From Gemmatimonas sp. (lineage in GTDB: Bacteria > Gemmatimonadota > Gemmatimonadetes > Gemmatimonadales > Gemmatimonadaceae), in NCBI GenBank assembly GCA_965279375.1, contig OZ257156.1, positions 4,800,001-4,864,000 of the forward strand: DNA of 64,000 nucleotides, given 5' to 3'. The notes under the pieces are model-generated. The model searched no databases. It was not told the DNA's origin and saw only the letters and a list, made by a program, of their open reading frames with translations. Below are positions 45,111 through 60,213 of the stretch, piece after piece (positions within the stretch are counted from its first letter, which is position 1; each line of letters opens with the position of its first letter). Position numbers and translations under genes: made by a program.

Positions 45111-46682
45111 CTATCTCTTGGCGACGAATGGCACCGTGGAGGGTGCGTGTCGATGCCGTGTCGCTTGCTCGTAACCATATGCAAGCTTGATGAGCGTCGG
45201 CTCACTCCATGCGCGCCCGAAGAACGTCATCCCCGCGGGAAGAACCCCTTCTCGCGTGTATCCCATCGGCACAGTGATCGCCGGGAAGCCCGTCGTGGGC
45301 GAGAAGAGCTGGCTGTTGTCGCCGTGCGGTGTGTTGAGATCGCCGATCAGCCTCGGCGGATTGCTCCACGTCGGGTAGACCAGCGCGTCGAGATGCAGTG
45401 AGTCCATCATCTGCGTGACGGCCACGCGCAACGCCGCGCGTACGCCTTCGCGACTCACACAGCCTGGTGCCGTTTCCGGCGTGTCAGTGCCGGCGACCGC
45501 GTCGCGCAATCGCTGTTCGACCGTCGGGTGATACTTCCGGCTCTTGATGATGTCGTCGAGCGTTTTCACCGGCGCATTCGCACCACGCGCCGCGAAGTAG
45601 CGTTCCAGATCCGCCTTGAAGCGATTGCATCCGCCCTGCTGTCGCCGCTGAATGACGTCGAGAGAGTCGACACGCGCCGGATCGACGATGATCGCGCCGG
45701 CCTTCCTGAGATCTTCGATGGCGCGGACAAAGACGGTGTTCACTTCGGCGTCGAGCGTGGGCCGCTCGTACGCCTGACGGAGAATGCCGATGCGTGCGCC
45801 CTTGAGTCCACCCGGCACGAGCGCCGCACGATAGTCCGGCGCGCGCTTGGCGTCGGCCTGCGCGGTGACCGTATCAGCGGGGTCGCTGCCGGCGACGACA
45901 TTGAACACTTCGACTGCGTCGGCCACCGTGCGGGCCATTGGACCAGCGATGTCGGCGACGGCATTCAGTGGCACCACCCCCGCGCGCGAGGTCAGCCCCA
46001 TCGTGCTGCGGATGCCGACGAGCGCCTGATGCGACGACGGCCCGCGAATGGAATTGCCGGTGTCGCTGCCGAGTCCCACTTCACCGAAGTTGGCAGCGAC
46101 GGCGGCCGCCGTACCGCCGCTCGATCCCGCCGTGACCCGATCGAGCGCGTACGGATTGCGTGAATAGCCGGGAAGGATCGAGCTGACCGTTTCGTACGGT
46201 GTGAACGCCCACTCCGCGAGATTGGATTTGGCGAGCACGATCGCGCCGGCGGCGCGCACGCGGGCCACCATCGTCGCATCCTGCTGCGGGACCCACCCTT
46301 CCAGCGCCAGCGAGCCCGCGGTGGTCTGCAGGTCGCGCGTTTCGAAGTTGTCCTTCACGATCATGGGAATGCAGTGAAGCGCACCAACCGGGCCAGTCGC
46401 CGCGTAGCGCTTGTCGAGCGAGTCGGCGACGGCGAGTGCCTTGGGATTGAGCACCACGAGCGCATTCACCGCCGGCCCACGCTTGTCGTACGCGGCGATG
46501 CGGTCGAGATAGCGCTGCACCAGCGCTCGACAGGTGAGCGTGCGCGCCTTGAACGCCGCATGCACAGCGGCGATCGTCGTCTCTTCCACGCGAAAGCCGC
46601 TCGTGCCGGATGCACGTTGCGCCTGCAACAAAGCGGGTGACAGCACAGCCCACAGCGCCGCCAACGGCAGCAGCGGGCGCAT
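45111..46682 (-). CDS. Amidase signature family protein, secreted
   Basis: Signal peptide; IVKDN, GSSGG, GSDTGNSIRGP (Ser-cisSer-Lys). Confidence 0.9.
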   Translation of the reverse strand: MRPLLPLAALWAVLSPALLQAQRASGTSGFRVEETTIAAVHAAFKARTLTCRALVQRYLDRIAAYDKRGPAVNALVVLNPKALAVADSLDKRYAATGPVGALHCIPMIVKDNFETRDLQTTAGSLALEGWVPQQDATMVARVRAAGAIVLAKSNLAEWAFTPYETVSSILPGYSRNPYALDRVTAGSSGGTAAAVAANFGEVGLGSDTGNSIRGPSSHQALVGIRSTMGLTSRAGVVPLNAVADIAGPMARTVADAVEVFNVVAGSDPADTVTAQADAKRAPDYRAALVPGGLKGARIGILRQAYERPTLDAEVNTVFVRAIEDLRKAGAIIVDPARVDSLDVIQRRQQGGCNRFKADLERYFAARGANAPVKTLDDIIKSRKYHPTVEQRLRDAVAGTDTPETAPGCVSREGVRAALRVAVTQMMDSLHLDALVYPTWSNPPRLIGDLNTPHGDNSQLFSPTTGFPAITVPMGYTREGVLPAGMTFFGRAWSEPTLIKLAYGYEQATRHRHAPSTVPFVAKR

Positions 46683-46958
46683 GCGCGGGCGCACCAGCAC
46701 GCGGCCGGTGTCGCGCGTCGTGCAACGATCGGATGAACTGCGAGTGACGCGCATGGGAGCCCGGGCGAGAGCGTTTTCGAAGACGAACGGTGTGCGGAAA
46801 GGGAGGTCGGCCGCGCGACGGACTGGATCGTTTCGCGCGGTGACGTGCGTTAGGGTATCGTTGCGCGAATGGGATCGCCAGTTGAACCAACGCCGATCTC
46901 CCGTTGCCTGTCCGCTTCTTCACGCGCGCACGTATCTCACACGCTCACACCCGCTGCG

Positions 46959-48391: not shown

Positions 48392-48558
48392 CGGCCGCAC
48401 CCTAACGCCCGATCGCAACCCCTTTATTCGCAGGGGCTTGAATTTCGTCCCTGAGAGGGTAAGCGTTCCCGCATTGTGACGGCCGACATAGGCTGCGTAT
48501 TGTTGCGCGACGTCGCGTAATGCAGCGGATGTTGGTCTTCTCCGCCGGGAGCGTGCGC

Positions 48559-49635
48559 ATGAAGCAGTCGTCGCCTGAGCCCCAGCCGAACCGCTACACC
48601 GCCATCACCTCCGCCAGCGCCCCGTCGCTCCGCGGCGCATACTCGCCTCCGAGCGAAGTCGCCCCCGCTGCGCTGCAGGAGCTGCGTGACGCAGGATTCG
48701 ATCTGCTCGACACCGTCGCACGTGGCGGATTTGGCGTGGTGTATCGCGCTAGAGAACGCGCACTCGAGCGTGATGTCGCGATCAAGCTGATCGATCATCA
48801 GTCGTCGCAGCGAGCGGGCGCACCGCAACCGATGCAGGAGATCGCGTCGCTCTCGGCGCTGCGCCATCCGAACGTCGTGCCGTTGTATGGCTCGGGCATC
48901 CTGCAGGGTGGCATCGCATATCTGGTGATGCCGTGGATCGACGGGAGTTCGCTGCGGGCACGTCTCGCGCGCGATGTGCAACTCCCGGTCGAGACGGTGC
49001 TGCGCATCGGGATCGAACTGGCCGATGCGCTGGCCGCATTTCACGCGCGCGGTCTCGTGCATCGCGATGTGAAGCCCGAGAATGTCTTGCTCGACGGCGA
49101 ACGCGCGATCCTCATCGACATGGGGCTGGTGTGCGCGAAGCGCGACGCGTTGCCACCGGACGCAGAGGCGGAGCCCTTGATCGGCACCCCGAGCTACATG
49201 AGCCCCGAACAGTGGACGCCGGGCGGTGCCATTGATGGTCGCGTCGACGTGTATGGACTCGGCTGCCTGCTCTACGAATTGCTGACGGGCGCGCTGCGAC
49301 ACGAGCGCAATCCGCTCCGCTCGCGCGCGAAGAACCCGTTCGTGTGGACGGAGAGCGCGCATGCCTCCGATCTGCTGTCGCCTCCGCAGGGCGATCCGTG
49401 GCGCACGCGGCCCAGCCTGCGGCGGCGGCGTCCCGACGCGCCAGTTTCACTCGAGCGCCTACTCTACCGCGCGCTCGATCCGGACCCGGCCAAACGCCTC
49501 TCGTCGGCGCCGGAGTTCAAGCAGGAACTGGAGGCCGTACAGCGCACATTCCTTCGCGCGCCCACCCCGCTGCGCGGCCTGCGCGCACTGCTGCAGGCCG
49601 CGACCAGCATCGGACGTACGGCAGCGCAGGATTAA
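48559..49635 (+). CDS. Stand-alone cytoplasmic Ser/Thr protein kinase
   Basis: ARGGFGVV, VAIK, HRDVKPEN, DMG (for DFG), GTPSYMSPE; no TM segment. Start 48520 or 48559. Confidence 0.85.
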   Translation: MKQSSPEPQPNRYTAITSASAPSLRGAYSPPSEVAPAALQELRDAGFDLLDTVARGGFGVVYRARERALERDVAIKLIDHQSSQRAGAPQPMQEIASLSALRHPNVVPLYGSGILQGGIAYLVMPWIDGSSLRARLARDVQLPVETVLRIGIELADALAAFHARGLVHRDVKPENVLLDGERAILIDMGLVCAKRDALPPDAEAEPLIGTPSYMSPEQWTPGGAIDGRVDVYGLGCLLYELLTGALRHERNPLRSRAKNPFVWTESAHASDLLSPPQGDPWRTRPSLRRRRPDAPVSLERLLYRALDPDPAKRLSSAPEFKQELEAVQRTFLRAPTPLRGLRALLQAATSIGRTAAQD

Positions 49636-50693
49636 GTCGCTGCCGAGCCCACCGAGTCCCCCACGAGCGGCATCACCTGCTCGGCGAATCGCTCCATCTC
49701 TTCCAGCTGCGGGCTGCTCTGCAGCAACAGCAGGTTGATACCCACCGATTCCAGTTCTCGCACGCGATCGGCGACTTGCTCAGGCGTGCCGACCAATCCC
49801 GCGCGCAAGCCGCGGTTCGAGACCGAGTAGTCCTGCAGCGACAGCCGCTGGTCGAGCTGCGTGTTGCCGATCCAGTCCTGATAGTTGGCGTAGCCCGGTG
49901 ATCCAGGCTGCACGTTGGTGATGCGGTCGAGCTCGCGCTTGGCTTCCGCCTCCGTGTCGCGCACGATCGCGTAGGCCGCCATGCCGAACTGCATCGGGCG
50001 CAGACCCGCGCGTTCGCGACGCGCGCGCATGTCCGCAATCTTCGGCGCAATGCGCTCGGCCGGATCGCCGTGCATCACATACGAATCGCACTGCGTGCTG
50101 ATAAGCGTCTTGGCCGCGTCCGACTCGCCTCCCGCGTACAGCACCGGATGCGGTCGCGACCAGCTGGATACCGGCTTGGGTTCGACGATCAACTCGTCCA
50201 CCTGGTAGTACGCACCCTGATAGCTGAACGACGGCTCGCGCCACGCGCCATGGAGCACGTCGAGCCATTCGGCGGTGCGCGCATAGCGGTTGTCGTGCTC
50301 GTCGAACTGCGACCCGTAGCGACGCGCTTCGTCCTTCCACCACGACGACACCACGTTGAGCGACAGGCGGCCGTTGCTGATCAGGTCGATGTTGGCCGCT
50401 TGCTTGGCCAGCGTGGCTGGATGATGAAACGTGGGGCGCACCGCCACCATCAACTCGAGACGCGACGTGACGGCGGCCAAGGCGGCCGCCGTGGACCACG
50501 CATCGAGCGCTGGCGCCGACACGCCCTTGATGTCGTTCAAGAAGAGTTCGGCGATGAGCGTGAGATCGTAGCCAATCTCCTCACTGCGACGCGCCAGACG
50601 CTGCACGTACGGCCAAGTCGCCTCCATGCCCTCGTCGGGCACATTGCGCAGCCAGCCGCCGAAGATCGGGAGCCAGTAGCCGTAGCGCATCAT
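49632..50693 (-). CDS. Luciferase-like (LLM-class) flavin-dependent monooxygenase, SsuD/SfnG-like
   Basis: YWLPIFGGW, LDAWSTAAALAAVT, AVRP, GRLSLNVVS, YAGGES, GLVGTPEQVA. Confidence 0.9.
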   Translation of the reverse strand: MMRYGYWLPIFGGWLRNVPDEGMEATWPYVQRLARRSEEIGYDLTLIAELFLNDIKGVSAPALDAWSTAAALAAVTSRLELMVAVRPTFHHPATLAKQAANIDLISNGRLSLNVVSSWWKDEARRYGSQFDEHDNRYARTAEWLDVLHGAWREPSFSYQGAYYQVDELIVEPKPVSSWSRPHPVLYAGGESDAAKTLISTQCDSYVMHGDPAERIAPKIADMRARRERAGLRPMQFGMAAYAIVRDTEAEAKRELDRITNVQPGSPGYANYQDWIGNTQLDQRLSLQDYSVSNRGLRAGLVGTPEQVADRVRELESVGINLLLLQSSPQLEEMERFAEQVMPLVGDSVGSAAT

Positions 50694-51688
50694 CCCGCCG
50701 TCACGAGCGCGCCGACACCCGCCTCCTGCTCCGCCTTCTCGACGCGCGACTGCAGGTAGTCCACCAGCGGCACCCAGGGATCGAAACCGACCACGTTCGG
50801 TGCGTCGGCGACGAAGTTGGACAGCGCGTTGACGTCGTAGAAGTAGTGCTTGCCGTCGCGATCATCCACGAGGAATTCGATGCCGCCCACATCGATGCGC
50901 GCGGCCTTCGAGATGCGCTCCACCTGCGCGATGATCTCCTCCGACGGATGCGCCGCTTCCACACGCATCCCCGACTTGGGTGCGTCGATCGCGCACGCGC
51001 CACCTACCAGCGCGACACCAGACGTCGTCTGGCACGCGTCGGCCGGGCACAGGTCGAACGAATCCTGCGGCGGATAGACGTTGATGGCGTAGAGATACTT
51101 GCCGTTGAGCGTCTCCACGCGGGTGATGTGTCCATTGCGAAGCGGGGCCGCTTCCTGCACGAGCGCCGTGCCGTCCACGCCGAGATCGACCGTGCCTGCA
51201 GCAACGGCGTCGGCGAGCGCTTCGCGTGTCTCGTAGCGCACGATGCCCGCGCCCGATCCACCCACGTTCGCCTTCACCAGCACCGGGAAGCGAAAGCCCT
51301 CGGCGGCATCAAGCGCACGCGACGCACTGTTGATGACCCGCGCCTTGGGGAACGGCAGGCCAAGCTGGCGCAGCAGATCGAGCTGCGTGGCCTTGGAGAG
51401 TTCGAACGTGTACGCATCGGCGCCGTTCACCACGGGGACGCCCAGTCGCTCGAGATGTCGCAACCAGTGCAGCGTGTAGAAGGTGCTCTGCGCATGTCCG
51501 CGCAGATACGCCGACGGGCTGGCGCGATTGAACACCAGCGACCACGGCGTGGAGCGTTCGGCGGGATCGAAGAGATGCGCCGCCGCATCGAGACGCGCAT
51601 ACGGGAGACCGCGGCGATCCAGCTCCGCGAACAATGGGCGGAACCAGTCCGGGTGCTCGTGATAAATGGCAATCGGGAGTGCAGACAT
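50690..51688 (-). CDS. ATP-grasp ligase (RimK/GshB-like)
   Basis: FPVLVKANVGGSGAGI, LVQE, GGIEFL, YDVNALSNF; overlaps the LLM start. Confidence 0.88.
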   Translation of the reverse strand: MSALPIAIYHEHPDWFRPLFAELDRRGLPYARLDAAAHLFDPAERSTPWSLVFNRASPSAYLRGHAQSTFYTLHWLRHLERLGVPVVNGADAYTFELSKATQLDLLRQLGLPFPKARVINSASRALDAAEGFRFPVLVKANVGGSGAGIVRYETREALADAVAAGTVDLGVDGTALVQEAAPLRNGHITRVETLNGKYLYAINVYPPQDSFDLCPADACQTTSGVALVGGACAIDAPKSGMRVEAAHPSEEIIAQVERISKAARIDVGGIEFLVDDRDGKHYFYDVNALSNFVADAPNVVGFDPWVPLVDYLQSRVEKAEQEAGVGALVTAG

Positions 51689-51725
51689 CCGAACGCTCCA
51701 GCAAAGGGAACGCCGTCCAGACACG

Positions 51726-51754
51726 AAAAAGCCCGGCGACAGAAGCCGCCGGGC
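51726..51754 (-). terminator. Intrinsic terminator (riboswitch expression platform)
   Basis: Minus strand GCCCGGCGGC-TTCT-GTCGCCGGGC-TTTTT, between the aptamer and the ATP-grasp start codon. Confidence 0.85.
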
Positions 51755-51757
51755 ATT

Positions 51758-51809
51758 CGCGTTTTAGCTCGTTGTTTTACGTGGCGGCAATAGGCGGCAA
51801 AAGACCACG
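51758..51809 (-). ncRNA. SAM-II class riboswitch aptamer
   Basis: Minus strand CGTGG-tcTTTTg-CCGC-ctaTTGC-cg-CCACG-tAAAacaacga-GCTAAA-acGCG. Has the P1 stem, UUU, UUGC, GCUAAA and a 3' pseudoknot partner as in SAM-II. Confidence 0.8.
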
Positions 51810-51912
51810 ATCCATCAGTTGTTCCTGCAGACTAGATGCGGGGACAAAAGTGGTCAAGCACTGAGAATATCAAAATTGGGACAGTTTGCTGAGCCGCACC
51901 GGCACTCGGCGA

Positions 51913-53994
51913 CTACCGCGGCCAGCTGTTATCCGCCGGGTTCTTGTCCGGAAAACGCTTGTGCGGGTCGAGCGTGAGCTTCTCGATCTTGCGGCCGCCA
52001 AACACGAGCTCGGCGTTGAAGGTCTTGCTGCCGGCGAACCAGACGTCCACTGGCCAGGTCACGACCGCGGTCACGCTGTCCGTCATCACCGCGTTCTTCA
52101 TCGGGCGAATGGCCGGACCGGTCGGCGCGAACTTCACCTCCAGCACCACCGGCGACGGCATCTGGCCGTCCTGCTTCACCACCACGCTGGTGCGGAAGCC
52201 CTTCGTCTTCACGGTGTCGATGCGCGCGTCCACACTCTCCGTCGTGAACAGCCACGCGTTCCAGAACCAGCTCAGATCCTGACCCAGCGCTTTGTTCATG
52301 AAGAACATGTAGTCCCACGGCGACGGGTGCTTGAAGAGCCACGCGTTGGCCCACTCGCGGTGCGCGCGCTGCACGGCGCTGTCACCGACGATGCCGCCGA
52401 GTGCGGAGAGCATGAGCGGCGTCTTGCTGTAGGTCGTGAAGCCGTAGAAGCCGGGGCCCGCGTAGTTGGCGTTCCACATCATCGGCGGTTCGGCTTCATT
52501 GCCGCTGGTGCGGCCGTAGCTCTGTCCCGGCCCGTCGAGCACCGGCGCACGCTTGGCTGCATCGGCGTCGGAGAGGATGTTCATGTACTGATTGAAGCCC
52601 TCGTCCATCCAGCCGTACCACGTCTCGTTATTGCTCACCACCATCGGCCACCACTGATGGCCCGTCTCGTGGTCGGCAGCGCCCTGGTTGGAGTTGATGA
52701 CCATCGGGTACTCCATGCCGGCGCTGGGGCCGTCCTGCAGCGTGAGCTGCGGAAACTGATACGGGAACCAGAGCTTGCTGTAGAACTCGAGCGCGTGGCG
52801 CGAGATCTCGCCGGCACGAGCGTACTGCGCCGCGCGTCCCGGCAGGTAAAGCATGTGCACCGGAATCGCGCCCTTGGTCGGAATCGTCGCACGCGTGGCC
52901 GTCCAGACGAACTTCTTGGCGGTGGCCCACGCGAAGTCGTTGACCGTGTCGGCATGGAAGCGCCAGACGAGGCGGCCGCGTGCGTCACCCGTGGCGGTCG
53001 CTACGCCGGGCCCCACTTCTTCGGGTCCAACGATGGTGGTGTTGGCATCGGACGCGGTCACGGTCGCGAGCCGCTCGCGCGCCTTGGCGGTGAGCACCTG
53101 CTCCGGGTTCTGCAGCACGCCCGTGCCGCTCACGATCCAGCCGGCGGGCACATCGATGCGCACGTCGAAGGTGCCAAAGTTGTTGTAGAACTCGGAGGGA
53201 CCGATGTAGAGCTCGGAGTCCCAGCCGCGGAGATCGTCGTACACGGCCACGCGCGGGAACCACTGCGTGGGCTGGTAGAGCGTGTCTGCCCAGCGCTGCA
53301 CCATGCGATGCCCCGAGCCGGGGCCACCGGGCAGCTTGTGCGACCAGTCGATCTCGATGGTCGACGTCGCGCCCGCGGCGATGGCGTTGCTGAGTCGGAC
53401 GCTCGCCGACGTGGACCGACCGTTGCGCAGTACCGGCTCCGAGGCAGGCGCGTTGGCCGCGTTGGCTTGGGCGGCCGCGATGGCCCGCGCGCCGGATGCA
53501 CCGTCGCCAGCCGGCGCGCTATTGGAAGAAATGTTGACCGTTTTGCCGTCGATGGACATGCGCGAGATGACCATGCCGTCGGTCACCTCCGCAGGCACCC
53601 ACGGCGCCGCGTGCGGCGCATTGCCGAGGAAGTGATTCGGGTCGAGTCGGAGCGCGATCGCCGTGAGCGAATCCTTGCTGGTGTTGTGCAGGGTAATGCG
53701 CGCCTTGCCGGTCAATCGGGACGTAGACGGATCGAGCGCGACATCGATGCTGTAGTCGGTGCGCAACTGCCAGTAATTGCGACCGGGACGACCCGTGGAG
53801 TCGCGGGTGCCGGCAGCGTACGCACGACGGATGGCGCTGGTGATCGGGATGTCGCGACGGATCGCGCGCTCGGGCAGCTTGGCGGCGGCAGCGCCGCGCG
53901 CAGTAGCCTGAGCGGCCAGCGAGGTCGCGGACGCGAACGTGAGCAGTGACCAAACCGTGACGCGCGCGACGAACGGACGATGACGACGGGACAT
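51913..53994 (-). CDS. M1-family zinc metallopeptidase, secreted (second paralog)
   Basis: Signal peptide, GMEYP, HETGHQWW...DEG; shares WFPR.AVYDD.RGW with the 34371-36377 gene. Confidence 0.9.
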   Translation of the reverse strand: MSRRHRPFVARVTVWSLLTFASATSLAAQATARGAAAAKLPERAIRRDIPITSAIRRAYAAGTRDSTGRPGRNYWQLRTDYSIDVALDPSTSRLTGKARITLHNTSKDSLTAIALRLDPNHFLGNAPHAAPWVPAEVTDGMVISRMSIDGKTVNISSNSAPAGDGASGARAIAAAQANAANAPASEPVLRNGRSTSASVRLSNAIAAGATSTIEIDWSHKLPGGPGSGHRMVQRWADTLYQPTQWFPRVAVYDDLRGWDSELYIGPSEFYNNFGTFDVRIDVPAGWIVSGTGVLQNPEQVLTAKARERLATVTASDANTTIVGPEEVGPGVATATGDARGRLVWRFHADTVNDFAWATAKKFVWTATRATIPTKGAIPVHMLYLPGRAAQYARAGEISRHALEFYSKLWFPYQFPQLTLQDGPSAGMEYPMVINSNQGAADHETGHQWWPMVVSNNETWYGWMDEGFNQYMNILSDADAAKRAPVLDGPGQSYGRTSGNEAEPPMMWNANYAGPGFYGFTTYSKTPLMLSALGGIVGDSAVQRAHREWANAWLFKHPSPWDYMFFMNKALGQDLSWFWNAWLFTTESVDARIDTVKTKGFRTSVVVKQDGQMPSPVVLEVKFAPTGPAIRPMKNAVMTDSVTAVVTWPVDVWFAGSKTFNAELVFGGRKIEKLTLDPHKRFPDKNPADNSWPR

Positions 53995-54156: not shown

Positions 54157-55257
54157 ATGACGCTGGCGCTCGAACGTATCGCGCACCGTGTTGGCCAGGC
54201 GACGCACATCTATCCGCTCGACCTCACGCTCGAGGCAAACGCGCTGACCGTACTTCTCGGTGCGACGCGCGCTGGCAAGACAACGTTGCTCCGCATCATG
54301 GCCGGACTGGATGTGCCATCGGAGGGACGCGTCCGTGCAGACGGCACCGACGTGACGGGTCGATCGGTGCGTGATCGCAACATCGCGATGGTCTATCAGC
54401 AGTTCATCAACTATCCGTCGCTCACGGTGGCGGAGAACATCGCCTCGCCGTTGCAGCGCCAGGCCGCGAGCGGTAGCGGCTTGTCGAAATCAGAGATTGA
54501 GGCGCGTGTGCAGGCCATCGCCACCCGACTCAAGATCGACCAGTTGCTGGACCGCCGGCCAGCGCAGCTCTCGGGTGGGCAGCAGCAGCGCGTGGCACTG
54601 GCGCGTGCACTGGCCAAACGTGCGCCGCTGATGCTGCTGGATGAACCGCTGGTCAATCTCGACTACAAGCTGCGTGAGTCGCTGCGCGACGACCTGTGCG
54701 AGCTGTTCGCCGCCGGAGAGTCCACCGTGGTGTACGCCACGACCGAACCCGCTGAGGCGCTGTTGCTGGGCGGGCACACGGCCGTGCTCGACGCGGGCGA
54801 GCTCCTGCAGTACGGCCCTACGCACGAGGTTTTCCACGCGCCGCGTTCCCTGCGCGTGGCACGTGCGTTCAGCGATCCGCCGATGAACTTTCTCGCCGGT
54901 CACGCGGCGGAAGGACAGGTGCGGTTGGCGAACGAGAACGTCTGGCCGATCACCTCGCCACACGCGAGTGCGCCACTCACCGGTGCGTGCACGGTCGGTC
55001 TGCGTGCGGGCGCGCTACGCCTGACGCAGCGCCCAAACGACATCTCCATCGCCGCGACCGTCACGCTGGCCGATATCGCGGGCTCCGACACGTTTCTGCA
55101 CGCCGACACCATGCTCGGCGGACTGGTTGCGCAGTTGCCCGGCGTGGTGCTGCTCGATGCGGGCGAACGCGTGGTGCTGCACTTCGATCCATCGCAGCTT
55201 TACCTGTTCGATGGCAACGGCGCGCTCGAGCTGGCACCGCAGCTGGGGCGACGCTGA
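54157..55257 (+). CDS. glpS: Glycerol ABC transporter ATP-binding subunit
   Basis: GATRAGKT, MVYQQFINYPS, LSGGQQQR, DEPLVNLDYKLRE, YATTEP. Confidence 0.85.
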   Translation: MTLALERIAHRVGQATHIYPLDLTLEANALTVLLGATRAGKTTLLRIMAGLDVPSEGRVRADGTDVTGRSVRDRNIAMVYQQFINYPSLTVAENIASPLQRQAASGSGLSKSEIEARVQAIATRLKIDQLLDRRPAQLSGGQQQRVALARALAKRAPLMLLDEPLVNLDYKLRESLRDDLCELFAAGESTVVYATTEPAEALLLGGHTAVLDAGELLQYGPTHEVFHAPRSLRVARAFSDPPMNFLAGHAAEGQVRLANENVWPITSPHASAPLTGACTVGLRAGALRLTQRPNDISIAATVTLADIAGSDTFLHADTMLGGLVAQLPGVVLLDAGERVVLHFDPSQLYLFDGNGALELAPQLGRR

Positions 55258-55258
55258 C

Positions 55259-56383
55259 ATGGCGCAGATCGATCTCGCCCTGTCGCATTCGTACGTCGCA
55301 CACCCCACGCGCGCAGAGGACTACGCGCTGCATCCACTGACGATGCGCTTCGATGACGGCGGCGCCTATGCGCTGCTCGGGCCGTCAGGCTGCGGCAAGA
55401 CGACGATGCTCAACCTGATCTCGGGGTTGCTGACGCCGTCGCAAGGCACAGTGCTCTTCGACGGGGTGGATGTGACCGAGCGCGCACCGCAGCAGCGCAA
55501 CATTGCGCAAGTCTTTCAGTTCCCCGTTGTGTACGACACGATGAGTGTGGCGGAGAATCTCGCCTTCCCGCTCAAGAACCGTGGTGTGGATGAGGCACGC
55601 ATTCGTGCGCGCGTGGGGATCATCGCCGAGATGCTCGATTTGAGTGCGCAGCTCGATCGACGCGCGGCGGGGCTCACCGCCGACGCCAAGCAGCGCATTT
55701 CGCTCGGCCGCGGCCTGGTGCGCGAGGATGTGGCCGCGGTGCTCTTCGACGAGCCGCTGACAGTGATCGATCCGCAGCTCAAGTGGCAGCTCCGACGCAA
55801 GCTCAAGCAGGTACACGCGGAACTCAAGCTGACGCTCATTTACGTCACGCACGATCAGGTGGAAGCACTCACCTTCGCCGATCAGATCGTGGTGATGATG
55901 CAGGGGCGCGCGGTGCAGACCGGCAGCGCGGCCGATCTCTATCAGCGACCATCGCACCCGTTCGTGGGGCATTTCATCGGCTCACCGGGAATGAACTTCG
56001 TGCGCGCGCGGGTCGAAGCGTTCGCGCTGATTCTCGCGGGCCAGCGCGTGCCGCTCGGCACCGCGCTTCATGGTGGCCGCACGGAATTTCCGAGTGGCGA
56101 CTTCGTGTTGGGTGTGCGACCGGAGTACGTGACGCTGACCGAAGCGCACGCACCGGGGGCTGTCCTGGGACACGTCACGCAGCGGCAGGAGTTGGGCATG
56201 TACGTTCTGGTCACCGCTCGTATCGGTGAGGGCGACGCCGCGACGACAGTGCGCGCCCGTTTACAGTCAGAGGAAGTGATACCGCGTGTGGGAGACGAGG
56301 TATGGCTGCAGCTGGCGGGCACGCACAGCTGCGCGTACGCACCAACGCTGTTTGACGAGTTGACCGCGGCGGGAGTGCGATGA
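55259..56383 (+). CDS. glpT: Glycerol ABC transporter ATP-binding subunit 2
   Basis: GPSGCGKT, VFQFPVVYD, GLTADAKQ (atypical signature), DEPLTVIDP. Confidence 0.85.
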   Translation: MAQIDLALSHSYVAHPTRAEDYALHPLTMRFDDGGAYALLGPSGCGKTTMLNLISGLLTPSQGTVLFDGVDVTERAPQQRNIAQVFQFPVVYDTMSVAENLAFPLKNRGVDEARIRARVGIIAEMLDLSAQLDRRAAGLTADAKQRISLGRGLVREDVAAVLFDEPLTVIDPQLKWQLRRKLKQVHAELKLTLIYVTHDQVEALTFADQIVVMMQGRAVQTGSAADLYQRPSHPFVGHFIGSPGMNFVRARVEAFALILAGQRVPLGTALHGGRTEFPSGDFVLGVRPEYVTLTEAHAPGAVLGHVTQRQELGMYVLVTARIGEGDAATTVRARLQSEEVIPRVGDEVWLQLAGTHSCAYAPTLFDELTAAGVR

Positions 56384-57276
56384 AAACGCCCAAGCCGATC
56401 AACCAGAAGGCGTGGCTGCTGGTGCTGCCGGTGGTGTTGTGTGTGGCGTTCTCGGCGGTGCTGCCGCTGATGACCGTGGTGAACTATTCCGTGCAGGATA
56501 TCATCTCGCCGGAGCGACGCATCTTTGTGGGCACGGAGTGGTTTGCCGCCGTGCTGCGTGACAGCGACCTGCATGCCGCGCTGGGGAGACAGCTGCTGTT
56601 CTCGCTGTGCGTGCTGCTGGTGGAAGTGCCGCTCGGCATTGCGCTGGCGCTGTGCATGCCCGCCACGGGATGGCGCGCGTCGGCCGTGCTGGTGGTGATT
56701 GCGTTGTCGTTGCTGGTGCCGTGGAACGTGGTGGGCACCATCTGGCAGATCTTCGGGCGCACCGACATCGGATTGCTCGGCACGACGCTCACGAAGTTGG
56801 GGATCGACTACAACTACGCCGGGCACGCGGGCGACGCGTGGCTGACCGTGCTGCTGATGGATGTGTGGCACTGGACGCCGTTGGTGGCCCTACTCTGCTT
56901 TGCCGGCCTGCGTGCCATTCCCGATGCGTACTATCAGGCCGCACGCATCGATGGCGCGAGTGCGTTCGCCGTGTTCCGCTACATCCAGCTCCCCAAGCTG
57001 CGTGATGTGCTGATGCTGGCGATTCTGCTGCGTTTCATGGACAGCTTCATGATCTACACGGAGCCGTTCGTCCTCACGGGCGGCGGGCCGGGCAACGCCA
57101 CCACGTTCCTCAGTCAGTATCTCACACAGAAGGCCGTGGGACAGTTTGACCTGGGGCCAGCGGCCGCGTTCTCGCTGATCTACTTCCTCCTGATCCTGCT
57201 GTTTTGCTTTGTGCTGTATCAGTGGATGCAACGCGTGGGGGAGGAATCGAACATGGCGGAGGGCGGCAATGGCTAA
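56380..57276 (+). CDS. glpP: Glycerol ABC transporter permease
   Basis: NQKAWLLVLPV, MDVWHWTP, YYQAARIDGAS EAA loop, GQFDLGPAAA. Confidence 0.85.
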   Translation: MKTPKPINQKAWLLVLPVVLCVAFSAVLPLMTVVNYSVQDIISPERRIFVGTEWFAAVLRDSDLHAALGRQLLFSLCVLLVEVPLGIALALCMPATGWRASAVLVVIALSLLVPWNVVGTIWQIFGRTDIGLLGTTLTKLGIDYNYAGHAGDAWLTVLLMDVWHWTPLVALLCFAGLRAIPDAYYQAARIDGASAFAVFRYIQLPKLRDVLMLAILLRFMDSFMIYTEPFVLTGGGPGNATTFLSQYLTQKAVGQFDLGPAAAFSLIYFLLILLFCFVLYQWMQRVGEESNMAEGGNG

Positions 57277-58087
57277 GCCTCGCCTGCGTATCGGTGTGCG
57301 TACGCTATTTCTGATCGCATACCTCCTGTTCGCCATCGTGCCGGTGTACTGGATGGTGAACATGTCGCTGCGTTCCAATCAGGAGATCGTCTCCGCGTTC
57401 AGCTTCTTTCCGCGCGCGCTCACGCTGGAGCACTACCGCACCATCTTCACCGATGCGTCGTGGTACTCGGGCTACATCAATTCGCTGATATACGTCGCGC
57501 TCAACACGGTGATCTCCCTCGCCGTCGCGCTTCCGGCAGCCTACGCCTTCTCGCGCTATCGTTTTCTGGGAGACACGCACGTCTTCTTCTGGCTGCTGAC
57601 AAACCGCATGACCCCGCCGGCGGTCTTTCTGCTGCCGTTCTTTCAGCTTTACTCCACGTTGGGGCTGATGGATACGCACATCGCCGTGGCGCTGGCGCAT
57701 CTCGTGTTCAACGTGCCGCTCGCGGTGTGGATTCTCGAAGGCTTCATGAGTGGGATCCCCCGTGAAATCGACGAGACGGCGTACATCGACGGCTACAGCT
57801 TTCCGCGCTTCTTCGTCACGATGTTCCTGCCGCTGATCAAGGCCGGCGTTGGTGTGGCGGCGTTCTTCTGCTTCATGTTCAGCTGGGTGGAGCTGCTGAT
57901 GGCGCGCACGCTCACCAGCGTGAACGCCAAGCCGATCGTCGCCGTCATGACGCGTACGGTGTCTGCCTCCGGCATGGACTGGGGGGTACTCGCCGCGGCC
58001 GGAGTGCTCACGCTGGTGCCGGGTGCGATCGTGATCTGGTTCGTGCGCCACTACATCGCCAAGGGCTTCGCCATGGGACGCGTCTAG
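57269..58087 (+). CDS. glpQ: Glycerol ABC transporter permease 2
   Basis: FFWLLTNRM, EIDETAYIDG, YIAKGFAMGRV. Confidence 0.85.
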   Translation: MAKPRLRIGVRTLFLIAYLLFAIVPVYWMVNMSLRSNQEIVSAFSFFPRALTLEHYRTIFTDASWYSGYINSLIYVALNTVISLAVALPAAYAFSRYRFLGDTHVFFWLLTNRMTPPAVFLLPFFQLYSTLGLMDTHIAVALAHLVFNVPLAVWILEGFMSGIPREIDETAYIDGYSFPRFFVTMFLPLIKAGVGVAAFFCFMFSWVELLMARTLTSVNAKPIVAVMTRTVSASGMDWGVLAAAGVLTLVPGAIVIWFVRHYIAKGFAMGRV

Positions 58088-58100
58088 TGGGAGGCCGCTG

Positions 58101-58409
58101 ATGCTGCGCTGGATGGCGTGGACACCGCCGGTGGCGATTTTTTTCGGCACCATCGTGCTCGTGCTGATCGGTATGACGGTGTGGGAGATCAAGTCGCCCA
58201 GTATCACGCGACGCGGCTTTCTCCCCATCGCGACCACACGCGGCGATCGGCTCTTCATCGGCCTGCTGTCGATGGCCTTTGCCAATCTCGGGTTCGTCGC
58301 CTTCCGTGAGCGACTGGGCGCCGCAGTCGGCGCCGCCTCGCCACCGTCGATGCTGATCGGCTTGGGCGTCTCGCTGCTGTTACTGCTCTGGATCATGCGA
58401 AAGGGCTGA
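58101..58409 (+). CDS. glpU: Small membrane protein DUF2160 family
   Basis: WMAWT, RRGFLPIATTRGDRLFIGLL. Confidence 0.82.
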   Translation: MLRWMAWTPPVAIFFGTIVLVLIGMTVWEIKSPSITRRGFLPIATTRGDRLFIGLLSMAFANLGFVAFRERLGAAVGAASPPSMLIGLGVSLLLLLWIMRKG

Positions 58410-58464
58410 CCGGCCGCTACGTTCGCAGCCACAGTTCCCGCCACCACTCTCCGTTCGAGGCCTC

Positions 58465-60213
58465 GTGCGCCGCTCATCATCCTACGCTGCTGCCCTGACG
58501 GCGCTATTCGCCGTCGCCTGCGGTGGCGACGCTCCCAAGTCGTCTGCCCCCAGCCGCACTGCTGCGGCGTGGATCGACAGCGAATTCCAGCCGTCGACGC
58601 TCACCAAGCCAGAGCAGACCGCCGAGATGCAGTGGTTCGCCGATGCGGCCGCCAAGCTCAAGGCGAAGGGCGTGAAGAAGATCTCCGTTGTGTCGGAAAC
58701 AATCACAACGCACGAGTACGAGAGCAAGACGCTGGCGAAGGCGTTCACCGACATCACCGGCATCGAGGTCGCACACGACCTGCTGCAGGAAGGCGACGTC
58801 GTCGAGAAGCTGCAAACGTCGATGCAGTCGGGGCAGTCGATCTACGATGGCTGGATCTCCGATTCCGACTTGATCGGCACGCACTATCGCTACGGCAAGA
58901 TTCTCTCGCTCACCGACTACATGGCGGGCGCAGGCAAGGAGTTCACGAGCCCCACGCTCGATCTCACGGACTTCATCGGCACGAGCTTCACGACCGCGCC
59001 AGACAAGAAGCTCTATCAACTCCCCGACCAGCAGTTCGCCAACCTCTACTGGTTCCGCGCCGATCTCTTCGCGCGCCCGGAACTGCAATCGGCCTTCAAG
59101 GCCAAGTACGGTTACGACCTCGGCGTGCCGCTCAACTGGAGCGCTTACGAAGACATCGCCGCCTTCTTCACCAACGACGTGAAGACGATCGACGGCAAGC
59201 CGATCTACGGCCACATGGACTACGGCAAGAAGGACCCGTCGCTCGGCTGGCGCTTCACCGATGCGTGGCTCTCGATGGCCGGTGCAGCGGACATTGGCAC
59301 GCCGAATGGTCTGCCCGTGGACGAGTGGGGCATTCGCGTGGCCGACGACAAGTGCACACCGGTCGGCGCGTCGGTCTCGCGCGGCGGTGCGACGAATTCG
59401 CCGGCGGCCGTGTACGCGCTCACGAAGTACGTGGAGTGGCTCAAGGCCTACGCGCCCAAGGAAGCAGCGGGCATGACCTTCGGTGAGTCGGGCCCGGTGC
59501 CGGCGCAGGGGCAGATCGCGCAGCAGATCTTCTGGTACACCGCATTCACCGCCGACATGACCAAGCCGGGTCTTCCCGTGGTGAACGCCGACGGTTCGCC
59601 CAAGTGGCGCATGGCGCCCGGCCCCAATGGCCCGTACTGGAAGCCCGGGATGCAGAACGGCTATCAGGACGTTGGCTCCTGGACGTTCTTCAAGGATCAC
59701 GATCCGAATCAGCTCGCGGCCGCGTGGTTGTACGCGCAGTTCGTCACCAGCAAGACGGTGTCGCTCAAGAAGTCGATCACCGGTCTGACGTTCATCCGCG
59801 ACAGCGACATCCGCGCCGAGTACTTCACCACCAACGCCAACAAGTACGGTGGTCTGATCGAGTTCTATCGCAGCCCCGCGCGCGTGGCGTGGACCCCCAC
59901 GGGCACCAACGTTCCCGACTACCCCAAGCTCGCGCAGCTGTGGTGGAAGAACGTGGCGGTTGCTGTCACCGGCGAGAAGACGCCGCAGCAGGCGATGGAC
60001 AACCTCGCCGACGAGATGGATCAGGTGATGGCGCGACTGGAGCGTGCAGGAATGGCGGCCTGTGCACCCAAGCTCAATCCTGCTGGAGATCCGTCGACGT
60101 ACCTCAGCGAAACGAACGCGCCCTGGAAGCAACTCGCGAACGAGAAGCCCAAGGGCGCGACAATCAGCTACGACACCTTGCTGACTGCGTGGAGGCAGGG
60201 GCGCGTGCGCTAG
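58465..60213 (+). CDS. glpV: Glycerol ABC transporter substrate-binding protein (lipoprotein signal)
   Basis: EFQPSTL, VSETITTHEYE, DSDLIGTH, PDQQFANLYW, GYQDVGSWT; N-terminal lipobox AVAC. Confidence 0.88.
   Translation: MRRSSSYAAALTALFAVACGGDAPKSSAPSRTAAAWIDSEFQPSTLTKPEQTAEMQWFADAAAKLKAKGVKKISVVSETITTHEYESKTLAKAFTDITGIEVAHDLLQEGDVVEKLQTSMQSGQSIYDGWISDSDLIGTHYRYGKILSLTDYMAGAGKEFTSPTLDLTDFIGTSFTTAPDKKLYQLPDQQFANLYWFRADLFARPELQSAFKAKYGYDLGVPLNWSAYEDIAAFFTNDVKTIDGKPIYGHMDYGKKDPSLGWRFTDAWLSMAGAADIGTPNGLPVDEWGIRVADDKCTPVGASVSRGGATNSPAAVYALTKYVEWLKAYAPKEAAGMTFGESGPVPAQGQIAQQIFWYTAFTADMTKPGLPVVNADGSPKWRMAPGPNGPYWKPGMQNGYQDVGSWTFFKDHDPNQLAAAWLYAQFVTSKTVSLKKSITGLTFIRDSDIRAEYFTTNANKYGGLIEFYRSPARVAWTPTGTNVPDYPKLAQLWWKNVAVAVTGEKTPQQAMDNLADEMDQVMARLERAGMAACAPKLNPAGDPSTYLSETNAPWKQLANEKPKGATISYDTLLTAWRQGRVR

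Follow-up and report, generated by a model that had tools for sequence, protein, structure and literature searches.

A two-gene operon on the reverse strand of a 64,000-nucleotide stretch of a Gemmatimonas sp. genome (contig OZ257156.1, positions 4,800,001 to 4,864,000; hereafter the window) encodes an ATP-grasp protein and a luciferase-like flavin monooxygenase (LLM) downstream of a SAM-II-type riboswitch aptamer. The ATP-grasp and LLM genes are a conserved unit, which very probably supplies sulfur amino acids or methionine from an oxidised or alkylated source, and expression of the operon is in all likelihood switched by S-adenosylmethionine (SAM). In a route whose prospects we consider evenly balanced, the predicted LLM would convert a sulfone into a sulfinate, which the ATP-grasp protein would reduce to a thiol. 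From 5′ to 3′, the operon comprises a likely promoter, the aptamer, a terminator, a Shine-Dalgarno (SD) sequence and two genes, ATP-grasp followed by LLM, whose open reading frames (ORFs) share an ATGA overlap; a sequence-only reading of this DNA had described the aptamer, the terminator and the overlapping gene pair:

51829..51857, - strand: candidate sigma-70-type promoter, TTGACC (51857-51852), 17 nt, TAGTCT (51834-51829); read by eye, putative in function
51762..51809 (core), P2a extending to about 51758, - strand: SAM-II-type aptamer, C-N variant (RF00521 match and leader comparison)
51726..51754, - strand: intrinsic terminator hairpin and U tract (terminator prediction, transcript folding, 49 leaders)
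51699-51695, - strand: SD sequence GGAGC, ahead of the ATP-grasp gene
50690..51688, - strand: ATP-grasp protein of the RimK/LysX fold, 332 aa, predicted sulfinate reductase (ORF, profiles, model)
49632..50693, - strand: LLM of the uncharacterised 3RAO/8VW6 family, 353 aa (ORF, homology)

A promoter scanner called no promoter, the TTGACC/TAGTCT candidate falling under its threshold; TTGAC recurs at this position in Gemmatimonas relatives. Neither a flavin reductase nor a transporter was found within the operon by ORF and profile analysis, in agreement with the same reading. Some relatives do carry a flavin reductase or transporter in the operon, and SsuE/MsuE-like flavin mononucleotide (FMN) reductases are located ahead of some operons.

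Conservation of the ATP-grasp and monooxygenase pair

Of 301 Gemmatimonadota genomes drawn, 89 have an ATP-grasp match, whose score assigns it to a close type in 65 genomes and to a distant type (~29% identity) in 24. The LLM was found in 62 of the 65 genomes with a close-type protein, one of the misses lying at a contig end (both counts include two unpublished genomes, G196 and G221, which bear on nothing else reported here), and in 0/24 of those with a distant-type protein. All 62 LLM-bearing genomes also encode the ATP-grasp protein, such that the LLM never occurs without it in this draw. The linkage is equally evident at the level of gene neighbourhoods: the LLM gene is adjacent in 75 of 80 surveyed Gemmatimonadota ATP-grasp loci, some of which are near-duplicates, while a contig end cuts three and two lack it. 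As the sequence-only reading had anticipated, the neighbourhoods further link the ATP-grasp gene to sulfur metabolism, through SAM-I and SAM-II riboswitches and metNIQ. Upstream ATP-grasp genes are likewise found in 74 of 80 metagenomic LLM loci, 71 belonging to the window-type family and three to a second family labelled D-aspartate-ligase; the remaining six, with 115-855 nt available upstream, have neither family.

Gemmatimonas aurantiaca has the ATP-grasp protein as well (P0100). The ATP-grasp gene is also retained without the LLM, namely in G011, where it is under the aptamer, in G121 and at L045. A distant subfamily (C-P-S/A-D/E-x-C; L154-L163) stands alone in other Gemmatimonadota orders, none of the 24 genomes that carry it having an LLM, and Pediococcus plasmids (L120:6835-10939; five records) carry a thioredoxin-fold gene, a dicarboxylate/amino-acid symporter split by IS30 and a CPADxC ATP-grasp gene, with no LLM. 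At one metagenomic locus (L267:5595-6356), a SAM-dependent methyltransferase gene sits between the ATP-grasp and LLM genes. SoxY and SoxZ are encoded downstream of the pair in L090, L094, L098, L100, L103, L106, L107, L112 and L113, in some cases with a metallo-beta-lactamase-fold gene; these loci represent one clade, without aptamer or leader peptide. No deacylase or peptidase recurs co-oriented next to the pair across lineages.

The leader RNA and regulation of the operon

The SAM-II-shaped aptamer recognised in the sequence-only reading retains P1 (51809-51804/51785-51780) and the pseudoknot (UUGC/GCUAA) over a core of 51809-51762, together with GCUAAAA (51768-51762) and a P2a CGC/GCG extension. 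The expected Rfam match was obtained in part: at the gathering level nothing in the window matched, whereas a search by E-value placed SAM_alpha (RF00521) at 51747-51818 (29.4 bits; E-value: 5.6e-05), below the gathering cut-off of 36. Two orthologous C-type leaders, L018 (37.1 bits) and L021 (37.4 bits), exceed this cut-off. The chief deviation of the window copy from the RF00521 consensus is CUUUUG in place of GAUUUG (C-U for G-A). The pattern of the aptamer is found in 74 of 81 Gemmatimonas genomes, against none for its reversed control, so the aptamer is not a chance match. In 49 orthologous leaders, P1 is paired in 100%, with two compensated pairs, and the pseudoknot is paired in 100% but with invariant bases, which thus gives no covariation evidence, while the P2a extension and the terminator stem are maintained. 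UUU, UUGC and GCUAAA, which by the numbering assumed are the equivalents of the SAM-contact bases, are invariant in 48-49 of the 49 leaders, with UUU, UUGC and GCUAA so in all 49. The contacts used for this equivalence are those of SAM-V (PMC6061858).

The genome's only other such aptamer (40.5 bits) leads metY, identified by its top PF01053 match, and a metX-hom fusion, read from the translation; a third, loose pattern match (C1:1674614) was rejected, as it is without P1 and not among the Rfam matches. The G-A third-strand bases are not present in the window copy (C-U), and C-A, C-U or C-C is found in 44 of 84 distinct copies. The C-U of the window presumably falls at the third-strand positions of two triples beside the SAM adenine, G-G-C and A-C-G. 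Both are among the 2QWY triples listed in PMC7583470. Thirty unselected Gemmatimonas loci comprise 24 GA-type aptamers (19 before metY, five unresolved and none before the ATP-grasp gene) and six C-type aptamers, five of which precede the ATP-grasp operon. Sixteen further, deliberately chosen loci, 14 of them picked for C-type aptamers, include one C-type copy before metY (L307) and one before a cys operon. The presumed place of the changed bases in the triples and the consistent split between GA-type before metY (19/24) and C-type before the ATP-grasp gene (5/6) could point to an aptamer that is weak for SAM or tuned to a related ligand, making for a weak or retuned switch. We consider this distinctly unlikely, however: the SAM-contact equivalents are invariant, the GA form precedes the same operon in other genera (10/24), L307 places the C-type before metY, and SAM-V accepts different triples at the same places (PMC7583470).

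The cys operon just mentioned (L304:518-8477; genome G032, without a close-type ATP-grasp protein) consists of permease, cysD, cysN, cysH, sulfite reductase and siroheme genes behind a C-type aptamer, and sulfate assimilation in G032 appears to be under SAM-II control. C-type aptamers also precede a related exported protein, which we take to be DUF1684-like, at L305:308-1441 and L306:383-2026, fused in one case to a ResA-like thioredoxin domain. From its placement, the C-type aptamer is read as a SAM-II variant retuned for sulfur-acquisition operons.

The terminator, likewise foreseen, is a hairpin (51754-51731) of ten pairs, nine of them G-C, followed by U5. A single such site does not exceed the shuffle level (mean 2.4), and its support therefore lies in the conservation of its stem in the 49 leaders; shuffle statistics for the leaders are inflated by kinship. 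Its 5′ arm (GGCGGC) is complementary to GCCGCC of the aptamer, a predicted antiterminator, and in folding of the growing transcript, with pseudoknots outside the model, the GCCGCC:GGCGGC helix is the lowest-energy fold until the terminator 3′ arm appears. By homology and folding, SAM would lock the pseudoknot and the terminator would form, while without SAM GCCGCC would pair with the terminator 5′ arm and the operon would be read, being on at low SAM. A 12-codon ORF across the aptamer (ATG at 51815) was rejected as a leader peptide, as it contains one Met and no Cys and its ATG is missing in most relatives.

Elsewhere, regulation of the operon takes other forms. With a leader defined as an ORF with at least six Met/Cys within the first 14 codons, the 76 Gemmatimonadota loci for which 400 nt of preceding sequence was available comprise 24 with an aptamer, 27 with a Met/Cys leader ORF and three with a borderline leader, while 0/513 control upstream windows passed the leader test. 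Met/Cys-rich mini-ORFs, located ~150-230 nt upstream of the ATP-grasp gene, replace the riboswitch in many Gemmatimonadaceae (L053, L055, L063, L065, L066, L069-L073, L077-L082, L084, L086-L088 and L091, and further L093, L095, L101, L109, L111, L114 and L115), followed by a terminator-like hairpin in the sequences read. They are likely ribosome-stalling attenuators, and attenuation by poly-Cys leaders has been described in mycobacteria (10.1101/834739). In a Bacillus record, a SAM-I riboswitch (100.5 bits) is located ahead of an LLM and a CPADxC ATP-grasp gene, and another (60.6 bits) precedes the module in Deinococcus peraridilitoris. The Bacillus operon may already be listed in comparative genomics of S-box regulons from 2004. 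One metagenomic locus has the order metN-metI-grasp-LLM-metQ, while in D. deserti the pair follows genes for the cysteate sulfo-lyase CuyA and the racemase CuyB, both with profile scores above cut-off. Since regulation and context converge on methionine and cysteine, a role in sulfur amino acid supply is well supported, and the SAM-repressed, undescribed sulfur or methionine module postulated in the sequence-only reading is upheld by SAM-II here, SAM-I in Bacillus and D. peraridilitoris, the Cys/Met leaders and metNIQ.

The two enzymes and their putative chemistry

The model of the ATP-grasp protein (pLDDT 91; residues 220-236 disordered) has the three-domain ATP-grasp fold over residues 2-322 and matches ArgX with a Z of 27.6 (root-mean-square deviation 2.4; 277 aligned). 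The ATP- and metal-site residues K99, K139, Q178-E179, R190, E271, D285 and N287 are conserved. The protein falls outside the RimK family TIGR00768 (56.7 bits against 143.4), and the R-S-N lid motif is replaced by a cysteine motif: its lid loop reads F-D-L-C214-P-A-D-A-C219, plus C232, and F-D-L-C214 aligns with the F-R-S-N lid of RimK, placing Cys214 opposite the Asn of R-S-N. Of 54 diverse full-length representatives, selected from 150, 40 have Cys214 and 37 have Cys219. The lid motif also occurs in 64 of 65 metagenomic ORFs, Cys214 and Cys219 in Bacillus, Pediococcus and Spirosoma homologues, and the lid cysteines in 10/10 stand-alone distant-type proteins checked. The second partner family of the LLM, found in Deinococcus and Actinobacteria (~22% identity), has exactly three invariant cysteines in 120 of the 120 best matches, one aligned with the Cys232 region of the window protein in the lid region and two in a C-terminal CAC. 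CAC-ending ATP-grasp proteins accompany the same LLM at L122:7701-8981 and L123:5879-10026, including that following cuyA-cuyB in D. deserti, and the metal site E...D-x-N is common to both families. Conservation of redox-capable cysteines in both partners and the survival of the ATP-grasp protein without the LLM suggest an ATP- and thiol-dependent step on the LLM product.

SfnG is the nearest characterised relative of the LLM (248.1 bits), which scores 180.3 bits against SsuD/MsuD (TIGR03565), under the cut-off of 518.2, and 122 bits against the NtaA/DmoA family. The protein belongs to the family of PDB entries 3RAO (B. cereus) and 8VW6 (52-57% identity), the latter (52%) being titled 'Crystal structure of SsuD'; no functional study of either was found in the literature searched, where 3RAO appears as a structural comparator only. 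SfnG converts dimethylsulfone (DMSO2) to methanesulfinate and formaldehyde, according to PMC11588060. The LLM retains its sulfonyl-oxygen ligands W121 (as W118) and N297 (as N293) and the O2-site residue N116 (as N113), and four of the eight DMSO2 ligand and cage residues are kept (W121, N297, W11 and F267 as Tyr). The methyl cage is partly replaced by small or charged residues (Y296 by S292, the Y60 region by K56), which are invariant in 57 LLM sequences, as are E49, D54 and R294. In this distant alignment, the replacements suggest that a sulfone bearing a methyl group on one side and a polar arm on the other would fit the LLM.

The host genome, a single contig that is 99.95% complete and whose closest named relatives are Gemmatimonas metagenome-assembled genomes, has no NIR_SIR domain (sulfite reductase), and a sulfite reductase was not found in 45 of 59 pair-bearing genomes. 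SsuD-like release of sulfite would therefore be a dead end here. MetH is present, as is one LLM besides that of the operon; no second SsuD-type LLM was found. No PF03358 FMN reductase was detected in the genome, and one PF01613 flavin reductase is encoded elsewhere in it. The genome has seven matches to PF08028, among which an MsuC may be present. A PAPS_reduct match belongs to a cysN/cysQ/cysC/cysD-like cluster, as judged by eye from where the ORFs start, and was rejected as CysH.

With FMNH2 and O2, the LLM would act like SfnG on a methyl sulfone, breaking its S-CH3 bond to yield a sulfinate along with formaldehyde. Methionine sulfone, which we propose with less than even confidence, would be the most likely substrate and would give homocysteine sulfinate, which mimics glutamate; the same chemistry would apply to dimethylsulfone or S-methylcysteine sulfone. 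In the least certain step, the ATP-grasp protein would phosphorylate the sulfinate rather than a carboxylate, after which a lid cysteine would attack to form a thiosulfinate, to be resolved to the thiol by further cysteine(s), cell thiols or thioredoxin, as in sulfiredoxin, and the conserved lid cysteines are compatible with such chemistry. Sulfinate is described in PMC12093155 as the sulfur species that needs ATP for reduction to a thiol, via a phosphoryl ester and a thiosulfinate. The likeness of homocysteine sulfinate to glutamate, and of cysteine sulfinate to aspartate, would match the two ligase scaffolds. As homocysteine would enter MetH and methanethiol MetY, the sulfur would bypass sulfite, which the genome appears unable to reduce. 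By extension, we tentatively suggest that the two distant ATP-grasp families are small-molecule sulfinate reductases which, with the sulfone-demethylating LLM, may form a widespread, sulfite-free route from methionine sulfone to homocysteine under SAM-I, SAM-II or Cys/Met leader control, undoing a supposedly irreversible over-oxidation of methionine.

The sequence-only reading had proposed the opposite order, ligation before oxidation. Spelled out, an acyl group (e.g., gamma-glutamyl) would first be attached by the ATP-grasp protein to the amino group of a sulfur amino acid that is S-alkylated or oxidised; the LLM would then break the C-S bond of this conjugate, and the tag would be taken off by a housekeeping hydrolase. 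The fold is indeed nearest to the ArgX/LysX/RimK ligases (Z 27.6), of which LysX and ArgX ligate amino acids for protection, and the two ATP-grasp subfamilies partner one LLM, with the ATP-grasp gene usually first. A precedent exists in the Cmo route of B. subtilis, which runs through acetylation, oxidation, cleavage, reduction and deacetylation (PMC10863075). Such an order is nevertheless unlikely: the ligase lid motif is lost to cysteines, both partner types conserve cysteines unneeded for ligation, no deacylase recurs (the amidase that follows the LLM in some Gemmatimonas begins with an apparent signal peptide), and an ATP-grasp protein alone would spend ATP on a dead-end conjugate. Because a deacylase or peptidase does not recur, the ATP-grasp protein is kept without the LLM and lid cysteines replace R-S-N, we favour oxidation first, followed by an ATP- and cysteine-dependent step.

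Other thiol chemistry would also explain metNIQ, the conservation of the cysteines and the missing sulfite reductase. The LLM would then act in a CmoJ- or DmoA-like manner on a sulfoxide such as methionine sulfoxide or a thioether such as S-methylcysteine, producing a sulfenate or thiol, and in an ATP-dependent transfer the ATP-grasp cysteines would carry sulfur, act as thioester acceptor or bind a metal. The loss of SfnG R55 from the LLM and the SoxYZ sulfur carriers downstream in nine related loci would fit, but thiols reduce sulfenates without ATP, so that the obligate ATP-grasp protein would lack an explanation, and the LLM is far nearer to SfnG (248 bits) than to NtaA/DmoA (122 bits). We thus regard this alternative as doubtful, even with CmoJ reported to turn a sulfoxide into a sulfenic acid (PMC10863075). 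The title of 8VW6, 52% identical and with no paper found for it, and the SsuE/MsuE-like FMN reductases ahead of some operons would agree with an ordinary sulfonate monooxygenase of the SsuD/MsuD kind, with sulfite as its product and an unrelated ligase encoded alongside. This is very improbable in view of the score (180 bits against a cut-off of 518), the sulfite reductase not found in the genome, and the near-obligate linkage with two different ATP-grasp families, and the sequence-only reading had rightly set the LLM apart from SsuD.

Several observations weigh against the proposed sulfone-to-thiol route. The LLM misses the SfnG cut-off (TIGR04021; 248.1 against 382.95 bits), and R55, the third DMSO2 ligand, is missing, in a residue mapping drawn from a HMMER alignment at ~30% identity. 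The third Cys is variable in the window type (16 of 31 motif-bearing representatives), at least five of the 54 ATP-grasp representatives contain no Cys, their loop being shorter, and the conserved cysteines could instead bind metal. No thioredoxin recurs next to the pair in Gemmatimonadota, two metagenomic loci have no ATP-grasp match in the sequence available ahead of the LLM (427 nt in L194, 855 nt in L197), and the Spirosoma ATP-grasp gene adjoins a different LLM, nearer to SsuD. Neither aptamer nor leader was found in 22 of the 76 loci, no regulator was found with Rfam at gathering level in 34 further loci (ten with a stand-alone ATP-grasp gene, ten other Gemmatimonadota and 14 metagenomic), and the metNIQ, CuyAB and Pediococcus contexts are one case each. 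Finally, 14 of the 59 pair-bearing genomes do have a sulfite reductase, and it was also not found in 34 of 40 relatives without a close-type ATP-grasp protein; its lack is lineage-wide and therefore constrains the chemistry but is no proof of a link to the pair.

The operon is flanked in the window by the following genes, none of which recurs with the pair beyond the genus:

51913-53994, - strand: M1 peptidase
48520-49635, + strand: Ser/Thr kinase, its stop codon overlapping that of the LLM
45111-46754, - strand: signature amidase, immediately after the LLM in some Gemmatimonas
54157-60213, + strand: sugar/glycerol-type ABC transporter

Significance and comparison with known systems

In the literature searched, with partial coverage, no description of the pair or of its putative ATP-driven, cysteine-based sulfinate reduction was found, nor a report of SAM-II in Gemmatimonadota, nor, by title, anything relevant on a methionine sulfone monooxygenase. 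Should the proposed route hold, the ATP-grasp superfamily would gain a reduction reaction besides ligation, and sulfiredoxin a small-molecule bacterial counterpart. Methionine sulfone and related sulfones would acquire a catabolic fate in which the sulfur stays reduced and carbon-bound, accounting for one sulfur source of Gemmatimonadota without sulfite reductase. A function would likewise be provided for the 3RAO/8VW6 monooxygenases, which are uncharacterised although their structures are solved, and for proteins that by the thousand bear the annotation 'alpha-L-glutamate ligase', 'D-aspartate ligase' or 'hypothetical'. The natural aptamer pair in one genome, G-A before metY and C-N before sulfur-acquisition operons, furthermore offers a handle on SAM-II affinity tuning.

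The leader shares with SAM-II (RF00521; PDB 2QWY) the H-type pseudoknot, the invariant UUU/UUGC/GCUAAA core, a downstream terminator and a paralogous copy on metY-metX, but the window copy scores under the gathering level, has C-N for G-A, and is located in Gemmatimonadota on non-canonical genes. Like the Cmo system of B. subtilis, the operon would recover a thiol amino acid by means of an LLM while bypassing sulfite; Cmo differs in using acetylation, sulfoxidation, sulfenate reduction and deacetylation with no ATP-grasp protein, and no acetyltransferase, second oxygenase or deacetylase recurs with the ATP-grasp and LLM pair. With SfnG (TIGR04021; 8T0U/8T0W; PMC11588060), the LLM has in common the class C LLM barrel and the equivalents of W11, W121, N116, H136, Y140, F267 and N297, whereas identity is ~30%, below cut-off, and R55, Y60, W285 and Y296 are lost. 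The SfnG pathway, moreover, carries its sulfinate through MsuC/MsuD to sulfite, while neither a sulfite reductase nor another LLM of the SsuD type was found in the host genome. The LLM is of the same family as 3RAO and 8VW6, and the Bacillus record combines such an LLM with a CPADxC ATP-grasp gene under SAM-I. The ATP-grasp protein has the fold of RimK, LysX and ArgX (Z 25-28) and their ATP-site residues K99, K139, Q178-E179, R190 and N287, but N/D-L-C-P-A-D-x-C replaces the R-S-N lid and its acidic pair is E271/D285, compared to D and E in RimK. The likeness to sulfiredoxin is one of working rather than membership, lying in the proposed ATP/Mg-dependent phosphorylation of a sulfinate, a thiosulfinate on an enzyme cysteine and resolution by thiol. 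Sulfiredoxin has a different fold and acts on protein cysteine sulfinates, whereas here an ATP-grasp protein would act on a small molecule.

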